NCBI GenBank assembly: GCA_034423215.1
Contig: DAOUIY010000008.1
Span: forward strand, 80,904-144,903
Source: Dehalococcoidia bacterium
Lineage (GTDB): Bacteria > Chloroflexota > Dehalococcoidia > Lucifugimonadales > UBA3495
Reading direction: 5' to 3'
DNA length: 64,000 bases
A model generated the notes under the pieces. That model was given only the letters and a program-made list of their open reading frames with translations. It was not told where the DNA came from and searched no databases. How positions within the stretch are numbered: position 1 is the stretch's first letter; every line of letters starts with the position of its first letter. Below are positions 17,448 to 55,837 of the stretch, piece after piece. Position numbers and translations under genes: made by a program.

Positions 17448-17571
17448 TTAAGGCGCCGGCCGGGTCTCATTGACCGGGAAAGACTCTCTCGATACCCAAA
17501 TCGTACTTTCAACAATGTAGAATAATATTATATATCGGCAGTTGCGAAATTACTGGGGGAAGGGTAAGGGT

Positions 17572-18894
17572 ATGACTACATCAGCACAAGAATTGAGCCC
17601 TACCGACCGGAATCTCTGGAGCGCCATCGTGGGAGAAGCGCTGGCCAATCTGAAGTACAATGCCTATTCCCACAAGGCCCTGGAAGAGGGTTACCCCGAG
17701 GTGGCTCAAATCTTCCAGGAAGTGGCCGGAGCGGAAACCATTCACGGCCTCAACCACCTGCGGGTGGCAGGGGAGGTGAACGGAACCCTCGAAAACCTGA
17801 AATCGGTGATTGAAGGAGAGTCCAAGGAATTCAGCGTCATGTATCCCCGCATGGTCCGGGCCGCCCAGGCGGAGGGGCGCCAGGACGCCGCCGACTCCTT
17901 CTCCCTGGCCCTGGAGCGGGAACATCACCACCAGGCCATTTTTGCCCGTGCCCTGGAACAAATGGAGTCCCGGCAGAGCAGGTCCGTGAACGAACCAACG
18001 GCCGCCGCACCCCTCGTTGACGCCTTGCCAGCCCCCGGGCCGCCGGTTGACGACAACCCGTCCGTGGATACAGCGGCCGCCGGTGCGGGTGACGGCCTGT
18101 CGCCGGACCCGGACCAGGTAACGGTCAGCCCCGACCTGGCCCTGGGCGAGGGCGCAAACCGTATAAGCCTCGACACCTACGTGACCGCAACCAGGGAGGT
18201 GGACCAGGAGCGCTTCCGGGTGGCCAATCTCGGCCGGCTCAGGGAGGTGGTATTCGGCGCCCAGGACGGAATCCTCAGCACGGTAGCCCTGGTAACCTCG
18301 GTGGCGGTTGCCATCGGCGACGGCGCCACGGTGCTGGTGGCCGGCATGGCGGCAGCCCTGGCCGGCATGATTTCCATGGCCACCGGCGCCTACCTGGGTT
18401 CCAGGGCCGAGCAGGACGTCCAGCGTTTTGAAATTGACCGGGAAGCCAGGGAACTGGAGGAAAACCCGGCGGAGGAACTGGCCGAACTGGTGGTAATGCT
18501 CCAAAGAGAAGGCAGAAGTTTCGCCGAAGCCCACGCCCTGGCATCGGAAATCGCCCAGGACAAGGAGCTTTGGCTGAAAACGCTGGTGGAGAAGGAACTG
18601 GGCATCAGCATGGAGGATACCACCAGCCCGGTCAAGGACGCGCTGGTGATGGGAGTTTCCTTCGTAGTGGCCGCCCTTATTCCCATTGCGCCCTACCTGC
18701 TGTTCGCCGGGCCGACGGCAATCGCCGTTTCGGTGGCCGGCGCCCTGGTTGGACTTTTCATCCTCGGAATGGGCAAGGGCAGGCTGGTGAGCAAGTCTCC
18801 ATTGCTCCAGGGATTGGAAATCCTGGTAATAGGCGCAATTTCCGCCGCCATAGGCTTTGTCCTGGGCGACGTGGTGCCCAGGCTATTCGGCTAG
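17572..18894 (+). CDS. ferritin-like (rubrerythrin/erythrin) domain fused to a VIT1/CCC1 iron-manganese transporter domain
   Basis: The N-terminal half has diiron-type E..H pairs (GEALANLKY, AGAETIHG, EGESKE, ALEREHHH). The C-terminal half has the VIT1 signature VFGAQDGILSTVALVTSVA and five TM helices. Confidence 0.8.
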   Translation: MTTSAQELSPTDRNLWSAIVGEALANLKYNAYSHKALEEGYPEVAQIFQEVAGAETIHGLNHLRVAGEVNGTLENLKSVIEGESKEFSVMYPRMVRAAQAEGRQDAADSFSLALEREHHHQAIFARALEQMESRQSRSVNEPTAAAPLVDALPAPGPPVDDNPSVDTAAAGAGDGLSPDPDQVTVSPDLALGEGANRISLDTYVTATREVDQERFRVANLGRLREVVFGAQDGILSTVALVTSVAVAIGDGATVLVAGMAAALAGMISMATGAYLGSRAEQDVQRFEIDREARELEENPAEELAELVVMLQREGRSFAEAHALASEIAQDKELWLKTLVEKELGISMEDTTSPVKDALVMGVSFVVAALIPIAPYLLFAGPTAIAVSVAGALVGLFILGMGKGRLVSKSPLLQGLEILVIGAISAAIGFVLGDVVPRLFG

Positions 18895-28636: not shown

Positions 28637-29014
28637 GGGTCAACTTGCTTGAACTATGGACAATATTTCTGCTCACCATGGTCCTGTCGAAGGGCCGTTC
28701 CTTGATGGTCCAACAAGCTAATCATGAGCGGGCCACCGGGTTTGCTCATTGATGCAACGTAGGGGCGCGTGGACATGCGCCCCTACGGCCCGGCAATTTT
28801 GAATTGATGGTTGCAGCGGCCCAACCCGTCGTTCCCAAAAAGACGGGAACCTCGACCAACCCAACTCGTCGTTCCCGAGCAGGCGGGAACCTCGACCAAC
28901 CCAACCCGTCGTTCCCGAGCAGGCGGGAACCCCGACAGGCTGGAGTTAAGATTGCTGCCGTCGCAGGAATGACGGGTTAGTGCATTACCCATCTTTTCAA
29001 ACATGGTTAACCAC
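28637..29014 (+). repeat. most complete composite B-C-A element, with imperfect TIRs and a 3x tandem 40-nt hairpin unit
   Basis: Left end gggtcaacttgcttgaactatgg, right end ccatcttttcaaacatggttaaccac (imperfect inverted repeat). B arms, then C hairpin GTAGGGGCGC-gtggacat-GCGCCCCTAC. Three tandem units of cgtcgttccc....gggaacctcgaccaacccaac (28821-28935), then ATTGCTGCcgtcGCAGGAAT. Confidence 0.85.
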
Positions 29015-29047: not shown

Positions 29048-29680
29048 TCACGGCTGGGACAGTTCGGTGAATACGCGGCGCCATTCCTGGTCGTCTCCCT
29101 GTCCCATGCCCTCCCGGTAAGTTATCATCCCTTCCCGGTCAAAGGCGATTTTGGTGGACTGGATGGTCACACCCAGGTCCGCCATTACCTGGGCGGGGGC
29201 GGTGGCCACCGGCCAGGGATGGTCGCGTTCGGCCCGGTAGGTCTCCAGGGTGGTAATGTCCTCAACGATTCCCGGGTGGACTCCGATGGCATAGAAGTCC
29301 ACGTCCCCGGCGTATTGGGGGTAGATGTCCTTCATCCGCCGCAACTCGGCGGTGCAAACCGGTCAAACGGTGGCCCAGAAAAAGAGGAAGGTGGGCCGGC
29401 CCGAGTTCACCAGGTCAGCAGAGGTAACGGCGCTGCCGTCTGCCAGCGTCAGGGTAAAGTCGGGCACCTGGTAGCCCGGCTGGTTTCCAATATCGGCAAC
29501 CGGATCGGGGAAATCTGCGCCGGTAAGCACGTAGCCGGATCCAGGGGGTTCTGTATTGCCGCCGGACACGTCCATGCTCTCCCCGTTGGCAGCCAAATAG
29601 ATGGACACCCCCATTCCGATGGCGGGCACCAGCACCCCCAGCCCCAGCAACACCTTTCCGATCCAACCGTTCTTGTTCAT
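29048..29680 (-). CDS. membrane-anchored thioredoxin-fold (TlpA/AhpC-TSA redoxin-like) oxidoreductase, predicted selenoprotein with U-P-V-C motif (in-frame TGA at 29363-29365)
   Basis: Track ORFs 29363-29794 and 29048-29344 are in the same frame, separated only by TGA. The joined sequence reads ...GRPTFLFFWATV-U-PVCTAELRRMKDIY.... The TGA sits where the first redox Cys belongs. The paralog at 29831-30892 has the same arrangement and a hairpin lies 10 nt downstream. Start set at ATG 29680 because a strong terminator lies at 29744-29789. Confidence 0.8.
29336..29352 (-). promoter_or_regulatory. candidate bacterial SECIS stem-loop for the 29363-29365 UGA
   Basis: The mRNA reads UGA-ccgguuugca-CCGCCG-aguug-CGGCGG. 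This is a 6-bp all-GC stem with a 5-nt G/U-containing loop starting 10 nt after the UGA. A further A-U and C-G pair is possible across one bulge. The sequence is identical in the paralog. Confidence 0.65.
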
Positions 29681-29743: not shown

Positions 29744-29789
29744 GAGTGAAAAGCAAGCCGGGGCAGGTTTCTGTCTGCCCCGGCTTGCT
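29744..29789 (-). terminator. strong rho-independent terminator between the two selenoprotein paralogs
   Basis: On the minus strand: AGCAAGCCGGGGCAG-acagaaac-CTGCCCCGGCTTGCT (perfect 15-bp stem) followed by TTTTCAC. Confidence 0.8.
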
Positions 29790-29830: not shown

Positions 29831-30892
29831 TTACTGGGATGACAGGTCCGTGAACACCTGCTGCCAGACGTCAGGACCGCCGCCGCCAAAACCGTCCCGG
29901 TAGATTATGACGCCCCGGGAATCGAAGGCTATCTTGGTTGACTGGCTGGAGACGTTCAGGGCGGAAAGGGCCTCGCGTTCGTTGACGGGGTTGGCTACCG
30001 GCCAGGGAAACCCGTTTCTCTCTCGGTGGCTTTCCAGCCTGTTCACGTCCTCAACTGCCTTGACGTATGTACCCACCGCATAAAAGTTGACCTGGTCCGC
30101 ATATTCGGGGTAAATCTCCTTCAGCCGCCGCAACTCGGCGGTGCAGACCCCTCAAGTGGTGGCGGTAAAGAACAGGAAGGTCGGTTTGCCCTGCTCCACC
30201 AGGCCGGCGGTCGAAACCGTATCTCCGCCGAACAGTTCGAGGGTAATGTCCGGGATGCGGTTGCCCACCTTGTTGCCCACCTCGGGCAGGGGTTCCTGGG
30301 GAACCGGCGTAGGCGCGTCCGTGGGCGTGGGTTCCGCGGCCTGGGTCGGCGCCGGGGCGGAGGTGGCGGTAGGGGCCGGCTGTACCACGGGAGCCTCAGC
30401 AGGAGTTGCTGCTGTTGGCTGAGCTACTGCCGGCTGGGCCTCCGTCGCCTGGGTGGGCTCGGCGGCCGGCTCAGGCTGGGCAACTACGACCACGGCCAGG
30501 GCAGGGTTTTCAGACGCCGGCGGGTCTGCTACGGCTGCAGGGGTATTTTCCGCCGCCTGGCTCATTTCCTCGACGGACGGTGAATCCTGGACTGCTCCGG
30601 CAACCACCGGCTGGGTTTCGACCGGTGCGGCCTGCTGGGAGGACGTTGCCGCCAGGGGTTGACTCGCTTCCTGGGGCGCGGTCTGCTCAACCGCGGTGCC
30701 CAGGGATTCGGACTGCGCGCCGGTAGCCGGCTCCGATTGGCGGCTTTCTCCGGCGGCCGGGGCCACTTGTTCCGGGGGGCTGTCGGACTGGCAAGCCACG
30801 CTGGCTACCAGCAGCAGGCCAACCAATCCGGGGACGGCCCAGCGCAGCTTGCCGCGCAACCTCCGGCCCCCCGCGGGGAAGGTTAATTTCAT
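29831..30892 (-). CDS. lipoprotein with a long low-complexity linker and a thioredoxin-fold redoxin-like domain, predicted selenoprotein with U-G-V-C motif (in-frame TGA at 30152-30154)
   Basis: Track ORFs 30152-30892 and 29831-30133 are in frame across the TGA. The junction reads ...GKPTFLFFTATT-U-GVCTAELRRLKEIY.... Lipobox LLVASVAC, then about 170 aa of Ala/Pro/Gln/Thr/Glu-rich linker. The C-terminal domain aligns with gene A on both sides of the TGA. Confidence 0.8.
30125..30141 (-). promoter_or_regulatory. candidate bacterial SECIS stem-loop for the 30152-30154 UGA
   Basis: The mRNA reads UGA-ggggucugca-CCGCCG-aguug-CGGCGG. The hairpin and the 10-nt spacing match 29336-29352. Confidence 0.65.
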
Positions 30893-30988
30893 TTGACTAC
30901 TCCTGAAATTATTCGAGATCGTTGCAGAAGGTTTAGGCTCCTAATTCTAACATACGAAATTGGGCCCACACCGGTTTCGCTTGGGGAT

Positions 30989-31403: not shown

Positions 31404-32891
31404 CTACCGGGCCCGGCCGCCCTGCAGCCAGGCCCGGCCGTCAATTGACATGAACCTGTCCGCTTCTACAGGCCCCCAACTGCCCTCGGAGTAGTAGTAA
31501 GGGCGGGGAGCGTTCGGGAGGCTGAATCCCGCGATGATGGGGTCAACGATGCTCCAGGCCTGCTCAATCTCGTCGGCCCGGGTAAAGAGGGAGGCGTCGC
31601 CGTTCAGGGCATCCAGGAGCAGGCGCTCATAGGCATCGGGGATGGCCTGGCCGCTGAAGGCCTCGTGGTAGTGGAATTCCAGCTCGGCTTTACGCATCTG
31701 CAATCCCGCCTCGGGAGTCTTGGTCTGAAACTCCAATTGGAACCCCTCGTCGGGCTGCACGAAGATGGCCAGGGTATTGGGGGGTATGTCCTCGTCTTCG
31801 GCCAGGGGGAAAAGCATGTGAGGCGGGTTGCGGAACTGGATGATGATTTCGGTGGACTTGTTGCGCAGGGCCTTGCCGGACCGCAGGTAGAAGGGGACTC
31901 CCTGCCACCGCCAGTTGTCCACGTAGAGGCGCACGGCCGCATAGGTGGCGGTGTCGGACTCCAGCGATACGCCACTTTCGTCCCGGTAGGTCCGGTACTG
32001 GCCGGGGATGGCGTGGACTGCCACGTCCTCCGGGTGGATGCGGCGGATAGCATTAAGCACCTTGACCTTTTCGTTGCGAAGGGCCTCAGCCTCGAAGGCG
32101 TGAGGAGGTTCCATGGCCACCAGGGTCATCAGCTGCAGCAGGTGATTCTGGAACATATCCCGCAGCACCCCGGTCTGGTCATAGTACTCGCCCCGCTCGT
32201 CAATCTTCAGGGTTTCGGCCACGGTAATCTGTACGTGGTCTATGTAATTGCGGTTCCATATTGGCTCAAAAATGGCGTTGGCAAAGCGGAAAACCAGCAG
32301 GTTTTGCACCGTTTCCTTGCCCAGGTAATGGTCTATGCGAAACACTTGGTCTTCCCGGAACACCGAGTGGGCGACATCGTTCAGTTCCCGTGCCGAGGAA
32401 AGGTCGGTGCCGAAGGGTTTTTCCACCACCAGCCGGCGCCAGCCACCGGCATCTTCGGCCATGCCGGCCTCACCCAGCCCGGCAATGGCCGACTGGTATA
32501 AGGCGGGAGCAAGGGAAAGGTAGTACAGCCGGTTTCCGGCCTGCCCGGCCGGCTCTATGCCGGAGAGCTTGTTCCTGACCTCCAGCAGGTCGCCGGTACT
32601 GGTGACGTCGCCGTGGAGGTAGTGAATGCGGGAGGCAAACTCGGTCCATTGGCCCGGCGTGGGCGAGGCTATTTCTCCGTCCAGTGACTGCCTCAAAAGG
32701 CCCCGGAACTGGTCGTCGTTCAGGTCGCTGCGGGCTACGCCGAGAATTCCCAGGTTTTCCGGCAGGCTCCCCTTGCAGTAGAGACTGCACAGGGCCGGCA
32801 CCAGTTTTCGCCTGGTGAGGTCGCCGCTGGCCCCGAAAATCACCAGCGTATTAGACTCCCGGCTCCCGGTGGGCAATTCAGCCGTCGCCAT
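31404..32891 (-). CDS. zwf: glucose-6-phosphate 1-dehydrogenase
   Basis: LVIFGASGDLTRRKL NADP motif and active-site RIDHYLGKE. Start at ATG 32891 with AGGAGG 7 nt upstream. The track ORF to 33179 is an upstream extension overlapping gnd. Confidence 0.93.
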   Translation of the reverse strand: MATAELPTGSRESNTLVIFGASGDLTRRKLVPALCSLYCKGSLPENLGILGVARSDLNDDQFRGLLRQSLDGEIASPTPGQWTEFASRIHYLHGDVTSTGDLLEVRNKLSGIEPAGQAGNRLYYLSLAPALYQSAIAGLGEAGMAEDAGGWRRLVVEKPFGTDLSSARELNDVAHSVFREDQVFRIDHYLGKETVQNLLVFRFANAIFEPIWNRNYIDHVQITVAETLKIDERGEYYDQTGVLRDMFQNHLLQLMTLVAMEPPHAFEAEALRNEKVKVLNAIRRIHPEDVAVHAIPGQYRTYRDESGVSLESDTATYAAVRLYVDNWRWQGVPFYLRSGKALRNKSTEIIIQFRNPPHMLFPLAEDEDIPPNTLAIFVQPDEGFQLEFQTKTPEAGLQMRKAELEFHYHEAFSGQAIPDAYERLLLDALNGDASLFTRADEIEQAWSIVDPIIAGFSLPNAPRPYYYSEGSWGPVEADRFMSIDGRAWLQGGRAR

Positions 32892-33798
32892 GGCTCGTCC
32901 TCCTGACCGGGTGCCCGCCAAACTGGTTGCGCAGGGCGGCCAGCAGCTTGGCGCCGAAGGGCTGGGCCTGGCGGGAGCGGAACCGCTGCAAGAGCGACAG
33001 TGTGATAACGGGAGCCGGCACCGCCAGGTCAACCGACTCCTGGACGGTCCACCTGCCCTCGCCTGAGTCTTCCACGTAGGCCTCCAGGTCGGAAAGGCTG
33101 GGATCGTCTTCCAGGGCCGACACCACCAGGTCAAGCAGCCAGGAACGCACGACGCTGCCGTGCCGCCAGGTATTGGCAATCCTGGGCAGGTCGAGGTTGA
33201 ATTCCTCCTTGGCCGCCATGAGTTCGAAACCCTCGGCGTAGGCCTCCATCAGGGCGTACTCCACGCCGTTGTGCACCATCTTGACGAAATGCCCGGCCCC
33301 CACAGGGCCCACGTGGCTATAACCCCGGCCGGCTCCCGGGGCCAACGACTGGAGAATCGGGTCCAGTCTTTGGAACGTCTCTTCCCGGCCGCCCACCATC
33401 AGGGTATAGCCCTCGGACAGGCCCCAGATTCCCCCGCTGGTACCCACGTCCATCAACTCAATGCCCTGACGTTCCAGCTCTGCGGCCCGGCGCAGCGTAT
33501 CCTTGTAGTTGGCGTTGCCCCCGTCCAGAATCACGTCGCCCGGACTCAGCAGGGGGGCCAGCGAAAGCATGGTATCTTCCGTTGGCTGTCCCTGGGGCAG
33601 CATCAGCCAGATGGGTCGGGGAGGACTCAACTGGTCCACCAGGTCCTGCAGGGATGACGCGCCCTGGGCTCCGAGAGCCCCGGATGCAGCGACGGCGTCT
33701 TCGCTGGTGTCGTAGGCAACCACGCGGTGACCGGATTCCAGCAACCGCTGGACCATGTTGCCGCCCATGCGGCCCAGGCCAATCATACCCAGTTCCAC
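32878..33798 (-). CDS. gnd: 6-phosphogluconate dehydrogenase, decarboxylating (short, about 300-aa type)
   Basis: MIGLGRMGGNMVQRL Rossmann motif and HNGVEYALMEAYAEGF. GTG start with a GGGAGG SD. The 3' end overlaps the zwf start by 14 nt. Confidence 0.88.
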   Translation of the reverse strand: MELGMIGLGRMGGNMVQRLLESGHRVVAYDTSEDAVAASGALGAQGASSLQDLVDQLSPPRPIWLMLPQGQPTEDTMLSLAPLLSPGDVILDGGNANYKDTLRRAAELERQGIELMDVGTSGGIWGLSEGYTLMVGGREETFQRLDPILQSLAPGAGRGYSHVGPVGAGHFVKMVHNGVEYALMEAYAEGFELMAAKEEFNLDLPRIANTWRHGSVVRSWLLDLVVSALEDDPSLSDLEAYVEDSGEGRWTVQESVDLAVPAPVITLSLLQRFRSRQAQPFGAKLLAALRNQFGGHPVRRTSHGDG

Positions 33799-33951
33799 GA
33801 AGCTAACCTCCCTGGCGCCAGCCCTGACTAAGTAACTATCTCAACAGTCCCTTCCCTTTTGACCGGAGAAGGCCAGAACGGGGATGGAATTTCTCCCCAC
33901 CATGCAGATACAAGGCATTCACCAAGTTCGCTGCAGGACTAGAAATTCTCC

Positions 33952-35577
33952 CTAAATGCTCTCGGCCAGTGGTTCAATGCCCCGCCCCGGTGCATCTTCC
34001 AGGCGGACTCGGGCGACTCGCCTTCCCAGGGCCTTCAGGGCCAGGAAATCACCCGACGCCTGGGCTTCCGCCAGCGTGCCAAAGGAGTAGGGGCGGCCGG
34101 GAATCTCAATCCGGGAGCCGCAGTCGGCCGTAAGTTGAAGGAAGATGCCCGAATCGGGGCCGCCCTTGTGCAGCTGCCCGGTAGAGTGCAGATAGCGGGG
34201 GCCAAAACCGGCCGTGGTAGCTATATTGTACTGCTGGGAAATCCGCCGGCGGAGATTATCCAGTTGCTCGTTCACCTCGGGCGAATCCGGCAGGTAAGCA
34301 AGGATGGCCAAGTAGTCCCCCAGGCCCGCCGCATCCAGCAGCGACTCCAGCGAGTGGGAGCTTTCCACTTCCGGCAGTTGTCCGGTGGCGACAAACTCAT
34401 CCAACACCCGGTCGGTCATATCCTTGGCTCCCTGCACGTCGGGCTGGTCAAAGGGATGAACGCCCAGCAGGTGGCCGGCCACCGCCGTAGCGAACTCCCA
34501 GCGGTAGAACTCGCCGCCCAGGTCGTACCTGTCCCCCAACCGCAGCCGGACTACCGGGTGATTGCCGGCCAGGCTGTCAACCAGCACATCAGTATCCGTA
34601 TTGTCCGCTCCTTCCAGGCGAAGGTAAACAAACAACCGGTCGTCGGCATAGCTTTCGGGGCTGAGCAAGGGTTCGTTCGCCACGGGAATTATCCCTTTGC
34701 CCGACTTTCCCAGGCTCTCGGCAAGCATCTGCTCTACCCAGAGGCCGAAGCCGGCCAGAGCGGGCGAGGTTACCAGGGTAAGCTTGTCGCGGCCCGCCTG
34801 CGCCAGCGATGCCATCGCAGCCCCCAGGCGGGCGCCGGGATTCTCCCCGGCAGGCGACAGGGCGCAGGCCTCGCGCATGGACTGGGCGCTGTCCAGCAAC
34901 CGGGGCAAGTCCAGTCCAATCAATGACGCCGGAACCAGGCCGAAATATGACAGGACGGAATAGCGGCCGCCAACTTCCGGGGGGTTTGCAAAGACCCGCC
35001 GGAAATGCTCCCTCGCACCCAATTTCTCCAGTGGCGTTCCGGGGTCGGTGACGGCGATGAAGTTTTCGCCGGCCCGCTCCTCCCCAACTATGGCGGCCAC
35101 CCGGCGCCGGTAGTAGGAGTAGAGGGTATTGGGCTCTATCGTCGTGCCCGACTTGGAGGAGACCAGGAACAGGGTCGAGGCCGGGTCTATCCTGGCGTCA
35201 ACGGCCTCAATCCAGGACGGCAGGGTAGCATCCAGCACCAACAACTCAGGGCAGCCCGGTCGGCTGCCGAAAGTGCGCCGCAGCACCTCCGGCCCCAGGC
35301 TGCTTCCCCCCATGCCCAGCAGCGCCACGTGCCGGTACCCACACGAAAGAACTTCGCCGGTAAAACCGTCCAGTTCCGCGACCTGCCGCCCCATGCTGGC
35401 CGGCAGTTCCAGCCAGCCCAGGCGGTCGGATATTTCTGCCGGCCCGTCGGCCCAGACCCGGAAATCGCCCTGCCAGATGCGGGAGACTATGTCCCGGGCA
35501 TCCAGGTCCCGCAGGGCGGACTGGGCCGCTTTGCCAAGACTGCCCAGAGATTCTTCTGAAGAGGCAACTGTAACCAC
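33952..35577 (-). CDS. pgi: glucose-6-phosphate isomerase (SIS-domain PGI of the type found in transaldolase/PGI fusions)
   Basis: LLGMGGSSLGPEV and FLVSSKSGTTIEP SIS motifs. The start is uncertain. I chose GTG at 35577 (GGGAG SD 6 nt upstream); the ORF is open to 35748. Confidence 0.8.
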   Translation of the reverse strand: MVTVASSEESLGSLGKAAQSALRDLDARDIVSRIWQGDFRVWADGPAEISDRLGWLELPASMGRQVAELDGFTGEVLSCGYRHVALLGMGGSSLGPEVLRRTFGSRPGCPELLVLDATLPSWIEAVDARIDPASTLFLVSSKSGTTIEPNTLYSYYRRRVAAIVGEERAGENFIAVTDPGTPLEKLGAREHFRRVFANPPEVGGRYSVLSYFGLVPASLIGLDLPRLLDSAQSMREACALSPAGENPGARLGAAMASLAQAGRDKLTLVTSPALAGFGLWVEQMLAESLGKSGKGIIPVANEPLLSPESYADDRLFVYLRLEGADNTDTDVLVDSLAGNHPVVRLRLGDRYDLGGEFYRWEFATAVAGHLLGVHPFDQPDVQGAKDMTDRVLDEFVATGQLPEVESSHSLESLLDAAGLGDYLAILAYLPDSPEVNEQLDNLRRRISQQYNIATTAGFGPRYLHSTGQLHKGGPDSGIFLQLTADCGSRIEIPGRPYSFGTLAEAQASGDFLALKALGRRVARVRLEDAPGRGIEPLAESI

Positions 35578-35772
35578 AAGGCGCTCCCGGCTGGCCGGTT
35601 CAAGGACTGAACGATCAGGTGAAAGTACGCTAAAGATACCATACCGTTTTCGGACGGGCCAAGCGAGGAGACAGACCATCCCGACCCAATTGGCCCGCGG
35701 CCCCATGCTATAATCCCGAAAGTTCCTACGGCAAGGTCTTTCTTCCAACCGCTATGCGCAGGAGGTATTCAG

Positions 35773-54730: not shown

Positions 54731-55837
54731 CTATTTCAATGCCAGGGTAGCGGGCCGAAGCTCTCCGGTCACATTAAAGCCGCGATGTACGATCTTGGTG
54801 TGCCTGGGGAAACGCGGCGAGGCAAAGTTTATGGTCGTCTCACCCGGCCCGGCGGACGCCAGAACCTGGAAAACTATGGTGCAAAGAGTGAAGGGAGAGG
54901 TTGCCCCCGCGCCGGTTGTCCCGGCGGCGAACCCTATTCTCCCGGCCAAATTGCTTGTCTCGTTCTGCAGCACAAATCTAAGCTTGCCGCCGGGTTTCAA
55001 GGAGATTATTTCCAGCTTGGACCTGTCGAAATCCAGGTAAACCTGGGCGGCGTCCACCGGGTTTTTTTCGCCCGCATTTATTCTCACCCGGACCGCCACC
55101 TCCTGACCGACGCCTGCTGGCGCCCCCTCAACGTCAAGCTCCGCGGCAACCAACGACTCCGGTACCGGCGTGGGAGTCGGCAACGGAGTACTTGTCGGCC
55201 TGGGCGTAGGCGTCACAGTCGGGGTAGGAACGGGCGCCAGTGTATTGGCCGGCAATGGCGTCGCCTGAGGAGAAATGGTCTCTACCGGGGTTGGTGAAGG
55301 CGCCACCATGGTACCGGATAGCGCGTCGGAGCCAGCTAATTCATGAAAGGGGGTTGCGGCGAGCGCAGGTGGTGTGCCGAATATCCCTGACCCAAGATAC
55401 ACGGCCAGCGCTCCTTCCGCCGTCGGCGCGGAACCCTGGGCCGGTACGGTGGCGCCGGTAGTTGCATCGGCTGCGTCGGCCCCGGGCTCTGCGGCAGAGG
55501 ACAGGGAAGGAATCACGGTTCTCGGTCCAATCCTCAAGACGCTGGTGGCGGCATCCGCAGGCAACCCGGTCGGGGCGGTGGGAAGGGGTGTTGAAGAAAT
55601 GTTAGCGCTTTCTGGTTCCAGGCCGGAGGGACCCGGCCCCTGTGGAGTGGGCGACAGCGAGCCCTCTGTTTCGCTAACCGCCGGCAACTCCCTGTCTGGA
55701 CCGGTGCAGGCAACAACGCACATTGCCAGCAGCACCGCTCCGGCCAGCGCCCCGAACCCTCTGGCCACCCGGCAAGCGCGACCACCTGTTGCGAGGACTG
55801 GGGAAAGGCGATGGGGGCAATCGTCGGGCTGATTCAA
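54731..55837 (-). CDS. secreted or lipoprotein with a Pro/Thr linker and a C-terminal cohesin-like beta-sandwich domain
   Basis: Hydrophobic leader ending in the lipobox-like AMCVVAC. PTPTVTPTPRPTSTPLPTPTPVP linker. The C-terminal approx. 135 aa (VAAELDVEGAP...VAVRVRINAG...AQVYLDFDRSKLEIISLKPG...) resembles cohesin domains by eye. The start is uncertain (TTG at 55837 or an internal GTG). Confidence 0.6.
   Translation of the reverse strand: MNQPDDCPHRLSPVLATGGRACRVARGFGALAGAVLLAMCVVACTGPDRELPAVSETEGSLSPTPQGPGPSGLEPESANISSTPLPTAPTGLPADAATSVLRIGPRTVIPSLSSAAEPGADAADATTGATVPAQGSAPTAEGALAVYLGSGIFGTPPALAATPFHELAGSDALSGTMVAPSPTPVETISPQATPLPANTLAPVPTPTVTPTPRPTSTPLPTPTPVPESLVAAELDVEGAPAGVGQEVAVRVRINAGEKNPVDAAQVYLDFDRSKLEIISLKPGGKLRFVLQNETSNLAGRIGFAAGTTGAGATSPFTLCTIVFQVLASAGPGETTINFASPRFPRHTKIVHRGFNVTGELRPATLALK

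Follow-up and report, generated by a model that had tools for sequence, protein, structure and literature searches.

We analysed a 64,000-nucleotide stretch of DNA from a Dehalococcoidia bacterium (contig DAOUIY010000008.1 of assembly GCA_034423215.1, positions 80,904 to 144,903; hereafter the window), centering on a gene on its minus strand, gene B, whose reading frame is interrupted by a single UGA codon and which is followed by a tandem paralogue, gene A. The analysis makes it very likely that gene B encodes a membrane-tethered selenocysteine (Sec) thiol-disulfide oxidoreductase of the ResA/TlpA/Etrx type that operates on the outer face of the membrane. The features of gene B, with the evidence for each, are given below; SECIS denotes a selenocysteine insertion sequence.

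30900..30904, minus strand: Shine-Dalgarno-like AGGAG, 7 nt 5' of the ATG (seen in the sequence, as ctcct on the plus strand)
29831..30892, minus strand: complete coding sequence of gene B, 353 codons including the predicted Sec247 (frame, translation, a Pfam match that bridges the UGA, an in-frame TGA shared with orthologues)
30791..30892, minus strand: predicted lipoprotein signal peptide, residues 1-34, with lipobox A-S-V-A-C34 (translation and lipobox pattern; lipidation presumed)
30278..30790, minus strand: low-complexity acidic tether, residues 35-205, 171 aa (composition, and length in the first copies of loci L001-L022)
29834..30277, minus strand: thioredoxin-fold catalytic domain, residues 206-353, ResA/TlpA-like (Pfam, PDB sequence matches, AlphaFold model of the homologue P0021)
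30152..30154, minus strand: UGA codon 247, predicted Sec, first residue of U-G-V-C (TGA in 103 of 108 copies; aligned with the first Cys of WCPSC)
30143..30145, minus strand: codon of Cys250, the resolving residue of UxxC (translation; invariant in 102 of 102 aligned domains)
30122..30143, minus strand: SECIS-type hairpin, including two weaker pairs beyond the core (fold, covariation, minimum free energy)
30136-30141 / 30125-30130, minus strand: 6-bp stem of the SECIS core, enclosing the loop AGUUG at 30131-30135

The frame of gene B runs from the ATG at 30892 to a TAA at 29833-29831, and its sole internal stop is the TGA at 30154-30152, where the junction reads ...GKPTFLFFTATT-[UGA]-GVCTAELRRLKEIYPEY.... 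A first-pass annotation of this DNA had pointed out this split open reading frame (ORF), with the same TGA and the same junction; both the frame and the translation agree, and its observation on gene B is confirmed in every detail that can be checked. Read through the UGA, the 148-residue domain runs ...GNRIPDITLELFGGDTVSTAGLVEQGKPTFLFFTATT-U-GVCTAELRRLKEIYPEY...QSTKIAFDSRGVIIYRDGFG....

A search of a collection of 5.8 billion proteins recovered 53 relatives, all of them fragments except for two full-length proteins, P0021 and P0027. Some of the fragments cover the C-terminal part (88-104 aa), others the N-terminal part (163-262 aa, ending in ...FLFFT[AS]TT); in the two full-length relatives the motif is WCPSC, whose first Cys aligns with the UGA. 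More broadly, full-length Cys homologues read WCPSC or WCPGC at this site. A genome scan in which each GTDB species was represented once detected 74 loci from 73 species, all of them Dehalococcoidia, SAR202 or Chloroflexota metagenome-assembled genomes (MAGs), in which the tblastn matches cover both sides of the UGA site. Together with the window these loci hold 108 gene copies, and the aligned codon is TGA in 103 of them (from 68 species plus the window), TGT in four and TGC in one, with TAA and TAG in none. The terminal stops of 104 family genes are TAG in 47, TAA in 32 and TGA in 25. Given these 25 terminal TGAs and the codon counts, TGA is an ordinary stop in these genomes that is exclusive only at the catalytic site. 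The first-pass annotation had proposed to see whether relatives carry Cys versions or single copies, and both are present, the former in five of the 108 copies and the latter at 47 loci.

The similarity of gene B to gene A was said to continue on both sides of the UGA, and a single BLASTP segment of 151 residues indeed crosses it (51% identity to the gene B domain with U taken as C, E = 1e-55). To gauge selection, we compared the proportions of nonsynonymous (pN) and synonymous (pS) differences between gene B and nine indel-free orthologues in ungapped alignments; orthologues of the 'GQC' type were excluded downstream of the UGA, where a one-codon indel shifts the alignment, leaving the nine gap-free pairs. 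Upstream of the UGA pN is 0.10-0.28 against a pS of 0.40-0.76, and downstream it is 0.10-0.22 against 0.41-0.68. Judged by these values, purifying selection is acting on both sides of the codon. The two halves are always adjacent and in frame across the relatives; conservation of the upstream fragment alone had been named as an outcome that would speak against a selenoprotein.

Immediately downstream of the UGA lies a potential hairpin with the core CCGCCG-AGUUG-CGGCGG (30141-30125), the loop of which begins 16 nt past the UGA (alignment columns 4-19). A block of 21 nt that includes it is identical between genes A and B, whereas the flanks differ. An ungapped alignment of 95 distinct segments, each comprising the UGA and the following 51 nt, was examined for evidence of conserved pairing, and RNAalifold independently predicted the same 6-bp stem from it. 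Compensatory double changes, from CG to GC, UA or GU, are seen in five of the six pairs (104 cells). The cells of the stem are paired in 92% of cases, as opposed to 20-62% after a shift of the 3' partner by 1-3 columns, and none of 500 shuffles reached the observed covariation score. The first scan yielded 99 TGA copies, of which 81 have the loop AGUUG, 17 have AGUUA and one has CGUUG, and their minimum free energy (MFE) has a median of -10.3 kcal/mol, being at or below -7.5 kcal/mol in 90 of the 99; in both gene A and gene B it is -11.5 kcal/mol. The five Cys copies lack the hairpin (MFE 0 to -3.3 kcal/mol). The peptide encoded over the stem varies among the Sec forms (TAELRR, AAELRQ, TAELQR, RSELRS, TAELQL), so that the pairing is preserved at the expense of the protein sequence; at the same place the five Cys genes encode TRELAE, TKELAE, ARELAE or REELKK.

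The published model of the bacterial SECIS (bSECIS) calls for an apical loop of 3-9 nt, an upper stem of 4-16 bp, an MFE of at most -7.5 kcal/mol, a G in the first two loop positions that is usually followed by G or U, and a spacing of 16-37 nt between the UGA and the loop (PMC13188914). The hairpin of gene B agrees with it in all four respects in which the two were compared, namely loop and stem (5 nt and 6 bp, or 8 bp with the weaker outer pairs), loop G, spacing (16 nt) and MFE. It likewise resembles the Escherichia coli fdhF-type SECIS and the bSECISearch consensus in being a hairpin within the coding sequence just past the UGA, with a loop G followed by U and a 16-nt spacing; it differs from the fdhF-type element in its stem and loop sequences, which are specific to this family, and in that binding by SelB is here a prediction. 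A search of the hairpin region against Rfam returned no relevant family at the gathering threshold or at E-values up to 1. With its fixed AGUUG/A loop and five covarying pairs, the 95-sequence alignment offers a clean training case for selenoprotein finders.

These observations bear directly on the possibility that the UGA simply terminates translation, so that gene B would be either a pseudogene or a pair of genes for a 246-aa lipoprotein and a 100-aa protein. Such is the form in which it has been deposited, for the public gene calls on the 287-kb source scaffold (ENA ERZ23495130, run SRR13587050) split gene B into 246 + 100 aa and gene A into 143 + 95 aa, the four ORFs carry no Pfam match, and every Sec-form relative found in the protein collection is likewise stored as fragments devoid of domain matches. 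Nevertheless, we regard termination as extremely improbable. The stop is always TGA and is swapped only for Cys codons, a single Pfam domain and a single fold cross it, purifying selection persists in frame beyond it, gene calls begin the C-terminal fragments at points that differ among relatives (MRRLK... or MKEVYPE...), and a covarying hairpin stands at the site expected of a SECIS and is lost where Cys replaces Sec. The conservation of UGA or Cys, taken with selection on both sides, indicates that the two halves are translated in one frame, which leaves no room for a pseudogene, for a pair of independent genes or for a reassigned code. An alternative code in which UGA specifies Trp or Gly was rejected on the further ground that TGA also ends 25 of the 104 family genes, gene A included. 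Thus, the reading of UGA247 as Sec, which the first-pass annotation had put forward for gene B, is strongly supported by the comparative evidence, and the same evidence excludes a chance occurrence. A crude scan of the window for further in-frame TGAs in UxxC or CxxU contexts left genes A and B as the sole credible candidates.

The region downstream of the tether matches the Pfam families AhpC-TSA (PF00578; 40.3 bits, cut-off 26) and Redoxin (PF08534; 34.3 bits, cut-off 26.6), in both cases over residues 208-331 and across codon 247. In a sequence search of the PDB the closest matches were thioredoxin-like proteins that have been solved but are uncharacterised (2m72, E = 1.4e-11), with weaker matches to tryparedoxin, ResA and DsbE/CcmG; a profile search that covered the C-terminal columns only contributed little more. 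We further used an AlphaFold model of P0021, the pLDDT (predicted local distance difference test) of which was 41 with a shallow alignment and rose above 90 over the domain once further full-length Cys homologues were added. Foldseek searches of the PDB with this model recovered ResA of Bacillus anthracis and B. subtilis first (4nmu, 1su9, 1st9; target-normalised TM-score 0.83-0.87, root-mean-square deviation about 2 Angstrom), followed by SdbA, the pneumococcal surface lipoprotein thioredoxin Etrx2, TlpA, FetE and StoA; lower in the ranking are Bcp-type peroxiredoxins (ranks 23-35) and SCO1 (46th, target-normalised TM-score 0.68). Insofar as the model represents gene B, its domain is structurally closest to the ResA/TlpA type.

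The active site of gene B, FFTATT-U-GVC (U247-G-V-C250), reproduces the ResA/TlpA context with Sec in place of the first Cys, and relatives have FFWATx-U-PVC and FFFATW-U-PVC. The resulting pattern F-F-x-x-x-U-x-x-C corresponds to that of ResA/TlpA (FWxxWCxxC) and not to the PxxxTxxC of peroxiredoxins, the residue at -3 from U being Ala. Short N-terminal window fragments that MAFFT misplaced were excluded from alignment. Among 102 aligned domains, the positions conserved in at least 90% include G210, P214, G223, P237, F242, U/C247, C250, E253, L254 and P262, and further Q317-S318-T319-K320, A322, G327, R332, G338 and W343. The invariance of S-T-K arises in part by construction, since it belonged to the search pattern; in four loci found without this pattern the corresponding residues are STK or SVK, with ATF in the most distant of the four. 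The motif Q-S-T-K-I-A-F to which these residues belong aligns, in sequence comparisons with PDB 2m72, with the cis-Pro loop of TlpA/ResA-like proteins.

The N-terminus of gene B combines a basic n-region (MKLTFPAGGRRLRGKLRW), a hydrophobic core and the sequence ...LLLVASVA-C34, with the codon of Cys34 at 30791-30793. The lipobox that had been noted earlier is thus present after a basic n-region and fits a PROSITE-type pattern ([LVI..]{2}[..][AGS]C), as does the signal peptide as a whole have the parts expected of a lipoprotein, a call made by pattern matching only. Of the 22 first gene copies in loci L001-L022, 21 have a lipobox Cys, and the exception (L009) is on a short contig from which no N-terminus was recovered; most single-copy relatives have one as well. 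The tether that follows bears out the claim of a linker of about 170 aa rich in Ala, Pro, Gln, Thr and Glu: seven residues (A40 P31 Q19 E18 V17 T16 S14) account for 91% of it, with one Arg and no Lys. Relatives preserve its length (120-189 aa in all but one of the 22 first copies) but not its sequence; the remaining copy, in L019, has a tether of 38 aa and sits just outside the long-tether group in a neighbor-joining tree of the domains. A lipoprotein with a long tether is therefore supported for gene B by these predicted N-terminal features.

In the mechanism that we envisage, UGA247 would not act as a stop; the hairpin, as a SECIS, would recruit SelB with Sec-tRNA(Sec), Sec would be inserted, and translation would run for 106 more codons. 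The motifs suggest that the protein is exported, cleaved and lipid-modified at Cys34, with the acidic Ala/Pro-rich tether of about 171 residues, which is probably disordered, keeping the domain off the membrane. By homology, the U247 selenolate would attack an extracytoplasmic client at a disulfide or at another form of oxidised sulfur, C250 would resolve the mixed selenenylsulfide, and the Se-S bond would be re-reduced by a putative membrane electron shuttle of the CcdA/DsbD type. This scheme builds on the domain family and fold, paralogy, conserved anchor types, UGA, Cys/Sec pairing and covarying hairpin described here; Sec insertion, lipidation, the substrates and the direction of its electron flow are its inferred parts.

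The same gene model could also accommodate a peroxidase, in which the selenolate would reduce peroxides directly and C250 would resolve the selenenic acid. AhpC-TSA is the best Pfam family of the domain, one Cys homologue is named 'peroxiredoxin family protein' (NCBI) and another 'alkyl hydroperoxide reductase subunit AhpC' (JGI), Bcp-type peroxiredoxins are among the Foldseek matches, and Sec is typical of peroxidases such as glutathione peroxidase (GPx). However, the PF00578 model also covers TlpA-like proteins, which explains a score above the cut-off despite a motif that is not that of a peroxiredoxin (Prx), and the best structural matches are thiol-disulfide reductases. The combination of a PxxxTxxC(U) motif and a catalytic Arg that identifies peroxiredoxins is not found in gene B: the residue at -3 is Ala and not Thr, and in the alignments with 2m72 an invariant Ser lies six residues before the conserved Asp, with an invariant Lys two residues further. 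We take this -6 position to be the site of the catalytic Arg in peroxiredoxins. The literature, too, separates the UxxC 'Prx-like' proteins from the TxxU peroxiredoxins (PMC1088965). We accordingly hold a peroxidase to be rather unlikely, and of the function suggested in the first-pass annotation, the extracytoplasmic redox role fits, but the part concerning peroxide defence is weakened by the FxxxxUxxC motif and the ResA-type best structural matches. A Sco/SenC-like copper chaperone or factor for copper-site maturation appears very unlikely. It is hinted at by a marginal SCO1-SenC match of gene A (23.8 bits, cut-off 22.8), by PF02630 among the precomputed matches of Cys homologues, and by human SCO1 and the TlpA-ScoI complex among the Foldseek matches. 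Sco proteins use CxxxC plus a distal His, whereas this family has UxxC and no invariant His among the columns conserved in at least 90%; moreover, gene B itself has no SCO1 match, and SCO1 scores well below ResA as a structural match of the P0021 model.

Several results nonetheless weigh against a Sec enzyme of the ResA/TlpA/Etrx type. No SelA, SelB or SelD domains were found among the scanned ORFs of the window, and ARAGORN detected tRNA-Asp only and no tRNA-Sec in it; the Sec machinery of this genome is therefore assumed from the lineage. CcdA/DsbD, cytochrome c maturation and Msr genes are absent from the window and are not conserved neighbours in relatives. The NCBIfam models for ResA, DsbE, MauD and StoA score 17-38 bits, far under their cut-offs of 123-359, and by these profile scores the domain belongs to the superfamily and not to any named equivalog. 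The structure model was built for P0021, a Cys homologue with 46-47% identity to gene B, and not for gene B itself. Lastly, two HMMER alignments place Ser318 of Q-S-T-K at the cis-Pro position of 2m72, and it is possible that the family lacks the cis-Pro loop of canonical ResA/TlpA proteins.

The tandem paralogue, gene A, lies 150 nt downstream of gene B:

29048..29680, minus strand: gene A, 210 codons (translation, Pfam, orthologue starts, BLASTP)
29363-29365, minus strand: predicted Sec codon of gene A, in the motif U-P-V-C (translation)
29336-29352, minus strand: SECIS core hairpin of gene A (fold)

Its start was set at 29680 since its orthologues begin with MNKNGWIGK, and N-terminally it has a transmembrane anchor (MNKNGWIGKVLLGLGVLVPAIG...), joined to the domain by a short linker (about 33 aa). 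In the domain tree, genes A and B fall in two sister clades, in keeping with the earlier claim of tandem paralogy. Lipoproteins with tethers of 120-189 aa make up the B clade. Proteins of the A clade start with MNKNGWIGK..., lack a lipobox and are anchored by a transmembrane helix with an approximately 33-aa linker, and the other clades consist of lipoproteins encoded by single-copy genes, their tethers being 23-50 aa long. An ancient divergence of gene A from gene B as a tandem paralogue is thus supported by the tree. Since the two have the same module on different anchors, they would act at two distances from the membrane.

Among the 70 loci of the first scan plus the window, 47 have one copy, 17 have two, five have three and two have four. 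There are four tandem Sec paralogues in L004 and L010 and three in L006, L013, L022, L061 and L062; in the last two of these loci, two copies share one frame with two in-frame TGAs and may represent a fused gene. The five Cys forms (L041, L051, L058, L060, L063) constitute a separate clade of the domain tree, with a protein of the TARA collection, P0077, as a close relative. They come from pelagic SAR202 MAGs (ALOHA, OSU_TB, NAT137), and the GC content of their loci is 37-44%, as against 52-66% for the Sec loci. It appears that Sec was exchanged for Cys only in this low-GC pelagic SAR202 lineage.

Thioredoxin-fold selenoproteins with UxxC of this type have been known since 2004-2005. By 2005 'Prx-like' UxxC proteins counted as known selenoproteins of prokaryotes, and 'thiol-disulfide isomerase-like' UxxC proteins were added in that year (PMC1088965); several Prx-like and thioredoxin-like Sec subfamilies were subsequently counted in the Global Ocean Sampling (GOS) data (PMC2398784), and the 'Prx-like' and 'thiol-disulfide isomerase-like (cd02966)' families have been tabulated (PMC13188914). 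In addition, Dehalococcoidia already rank among the most selenoprotein-rich bacteria, with 46-49 such genes reported for their MAGs (PMC13326102). Compared by description, rather than with the reference sequences WP_010940744.1 and MGB1650493.1, these Sec families share with gene B the thioredoxin fold, the PF00578/PF08534 matches, a UxxC with Sec for the first Cys and the existence of Cys homologues, and they were predicted by the same logic of a Cys/Sec pair and a bSECIS. What sets the gene B clade apart is its limitation to Dehalococcoidia/SAR202 in the genome scan, the presence of Q-S-T-K-I-A-F in place of the cis-Pro loop, the fixed AGUUG/A loop, arrays of 2-4 copies and one branch with a tether of 120-189 aa. 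It is conceivable, though we hold it only tentatively and consider it less likely than not to be borne out, that these features define a distinct Dehalococcoidia/SAR202 subfamily of Sec redoxins with Ser-Thr-Lys for the cis-Pro, arrays of 2-4 copies and graded distances from the membrane. Were this true, the graded anchors (a transmembrane helix with about 33 aa, and lipoproteins with 23-50 or 120-189 aa) would give the cell envelope a reducing system arranged in spatial tiers.

ResA, TlpA, CcmG (DsbE) and StoA, of which ResA gave the best structural matches of the P0021 model, share with gene B the FxxxxCxxC context and an outward-facing topology with a membrane anchor; gene B differs from them in having Sec for Cys, sub-cut-off NCBIfam scores and Ser at the cis-Pro position, and in the lack of resBC, ccdA or ccm genes nearby. 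Etrx1 and Etrx2 of Streptococcus pneumoniae (4hqz, 2yp6) and SdbA of S. gordonii (5um7) combine a thioredoxin fold with a lipoprotein anchor outside the membrane and are among the Foldseek matches of the P0021 model (target-normalised TM-score 0.73-0.85, sequence identity 16-20%). These are Cys enzymes without a long low-complexity tether, and gene B for its part has no msrAB or ccdA neighbour. As a functional analogy, a role like theirs in the repair of extracytoplasmic oxidative damage is plausible. Given that the UxxC kind and the wealth of selenoproteins in Dehalococcoidia were already known, gene B is best seen as real but ordinary, and as new or at least publicly unannotated. To a specialist it would be unsurprising and of modest interest, chiefly for the tandem Sec arrays, the graded tethers, the fixed loop, the possible loss of the cis-Pro and a Sec/Cys split that tracks GC content; the arrays and the Sec-to-Cys switch are tidy examples of known trends and not new principles. 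The family is, however, widespread in an abundant marine and sediment lineage. No NCBIfam model captures it, and since its Sec forms are stored as fragments, an envelope redox enzyme is invisible to routine annotation in 68 of the 73 species.

Between genes B and A lies a strong hairpin:

29748..29789, minus strand: intergenic GC-rich hairpin with a short U-run, candidate intrinsic terminator of gene B (fold statistics, hairpins after orthologues)

Its perfect 15-bp stem (29752-29766 / 29775-29789) encloses an 8-nt loop and has an MFE of -37 kcal/mol (z = -5.25; none of 200 shuffles folds as well). The first-pass annotation had called a terminator at 29744-29789, a span that includes the trailing U-run, and had proposed that the two genes are transcribed independently. 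The perfect stem stands, but the role of terminator is plausible only, as the U-tract is short: the run after the stem is UUU, or UUUU with the last base of the stem. This shortness also accounts for a scan for consensus terminators not having flagged the hairpin. Many other loci have a strong GC-rich hairpin in the corresponding position behind the orthologous gene, with -30 to -45 kcal/mol in L002, L003, L006, L007, L013, L014 and L022, for instance, and some of these hairpins have better U-runs. That gene B terminates here and that genes A and B are transcribed independently is, on these predicted folds, plausible only.

Upstream of gene B are genes for 6-phosphogluconate dehydrogenase (6PGDH), glucose-6-phosphate dehydrogenase (G6PD) and a transaldolase/phosphoglucose isomerase (PGI), and downstream are UvrD/PcrA and a phosphonate ABC system; farther neighbours include ABC exporters, ArgRS, HisRS, PurL and RecQ. 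The oxidative pentose-phosphate cluster (6PGDH, G6PD and the transaldolase/PGI-like gene; 31404-35748, minus strand) lies directly upstream of gene B and also occurs in L075; about 16 loci have G6PD at this place and about 14 have 6PGDH, counting the window. In the close clade, zwf, gnd, tal-pgi and uvrD keep their place near the gene; elsewhere the conserved neighbours are genes of the SDR, aminotransferase, HAD and MFS families. The pentose-phosphate genes probably reflect the synteny of the lineage rather than a functional link. When the ORFs of all loci were clustered in search of redox partners, only lineage synteny or unrelated enzymes emerged, and the association with resBC/ccm or sco/cox that would be expected of the ResA/TlpA type was seen neither at the loci of relatives nor in the window. 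The window does not contain Lgt or LspA. Two ABC exporters at 36.8-40.7 kb were considered as CydDC and rejected, being generic MsbA-like proteins below all cut-offs.

Over its two strands the window has 10 copies, with at most three mismatches, of a palindrome resembling repetitive extragenic palindromic (REP) elements, GTCGTTCCCG-N5-CGGGAAC, where none would be expected by chance. Its sites are at 28820-28936 and at 634, 10021, 13377, 15537, 20149, 25759, 43785 and 49194; two of them belong to an array of 40-nt units (2.9 copies) that follows closely on the stop of gene A. With zero mismatches allowed, the element was not found in the 74 related loci. Elsewhere in the window, a Pfam scan identified a rubrerythrin-VIT1 fusion, combining ferritin-like and vacuolar-iron-transporter domains, at 17542-18891 on the plus strand. 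An ORF at 54734-55837 on the minus strand matches the Cohesin domain (E = 5e-10), which is unusual for a Chloroflexota genome.

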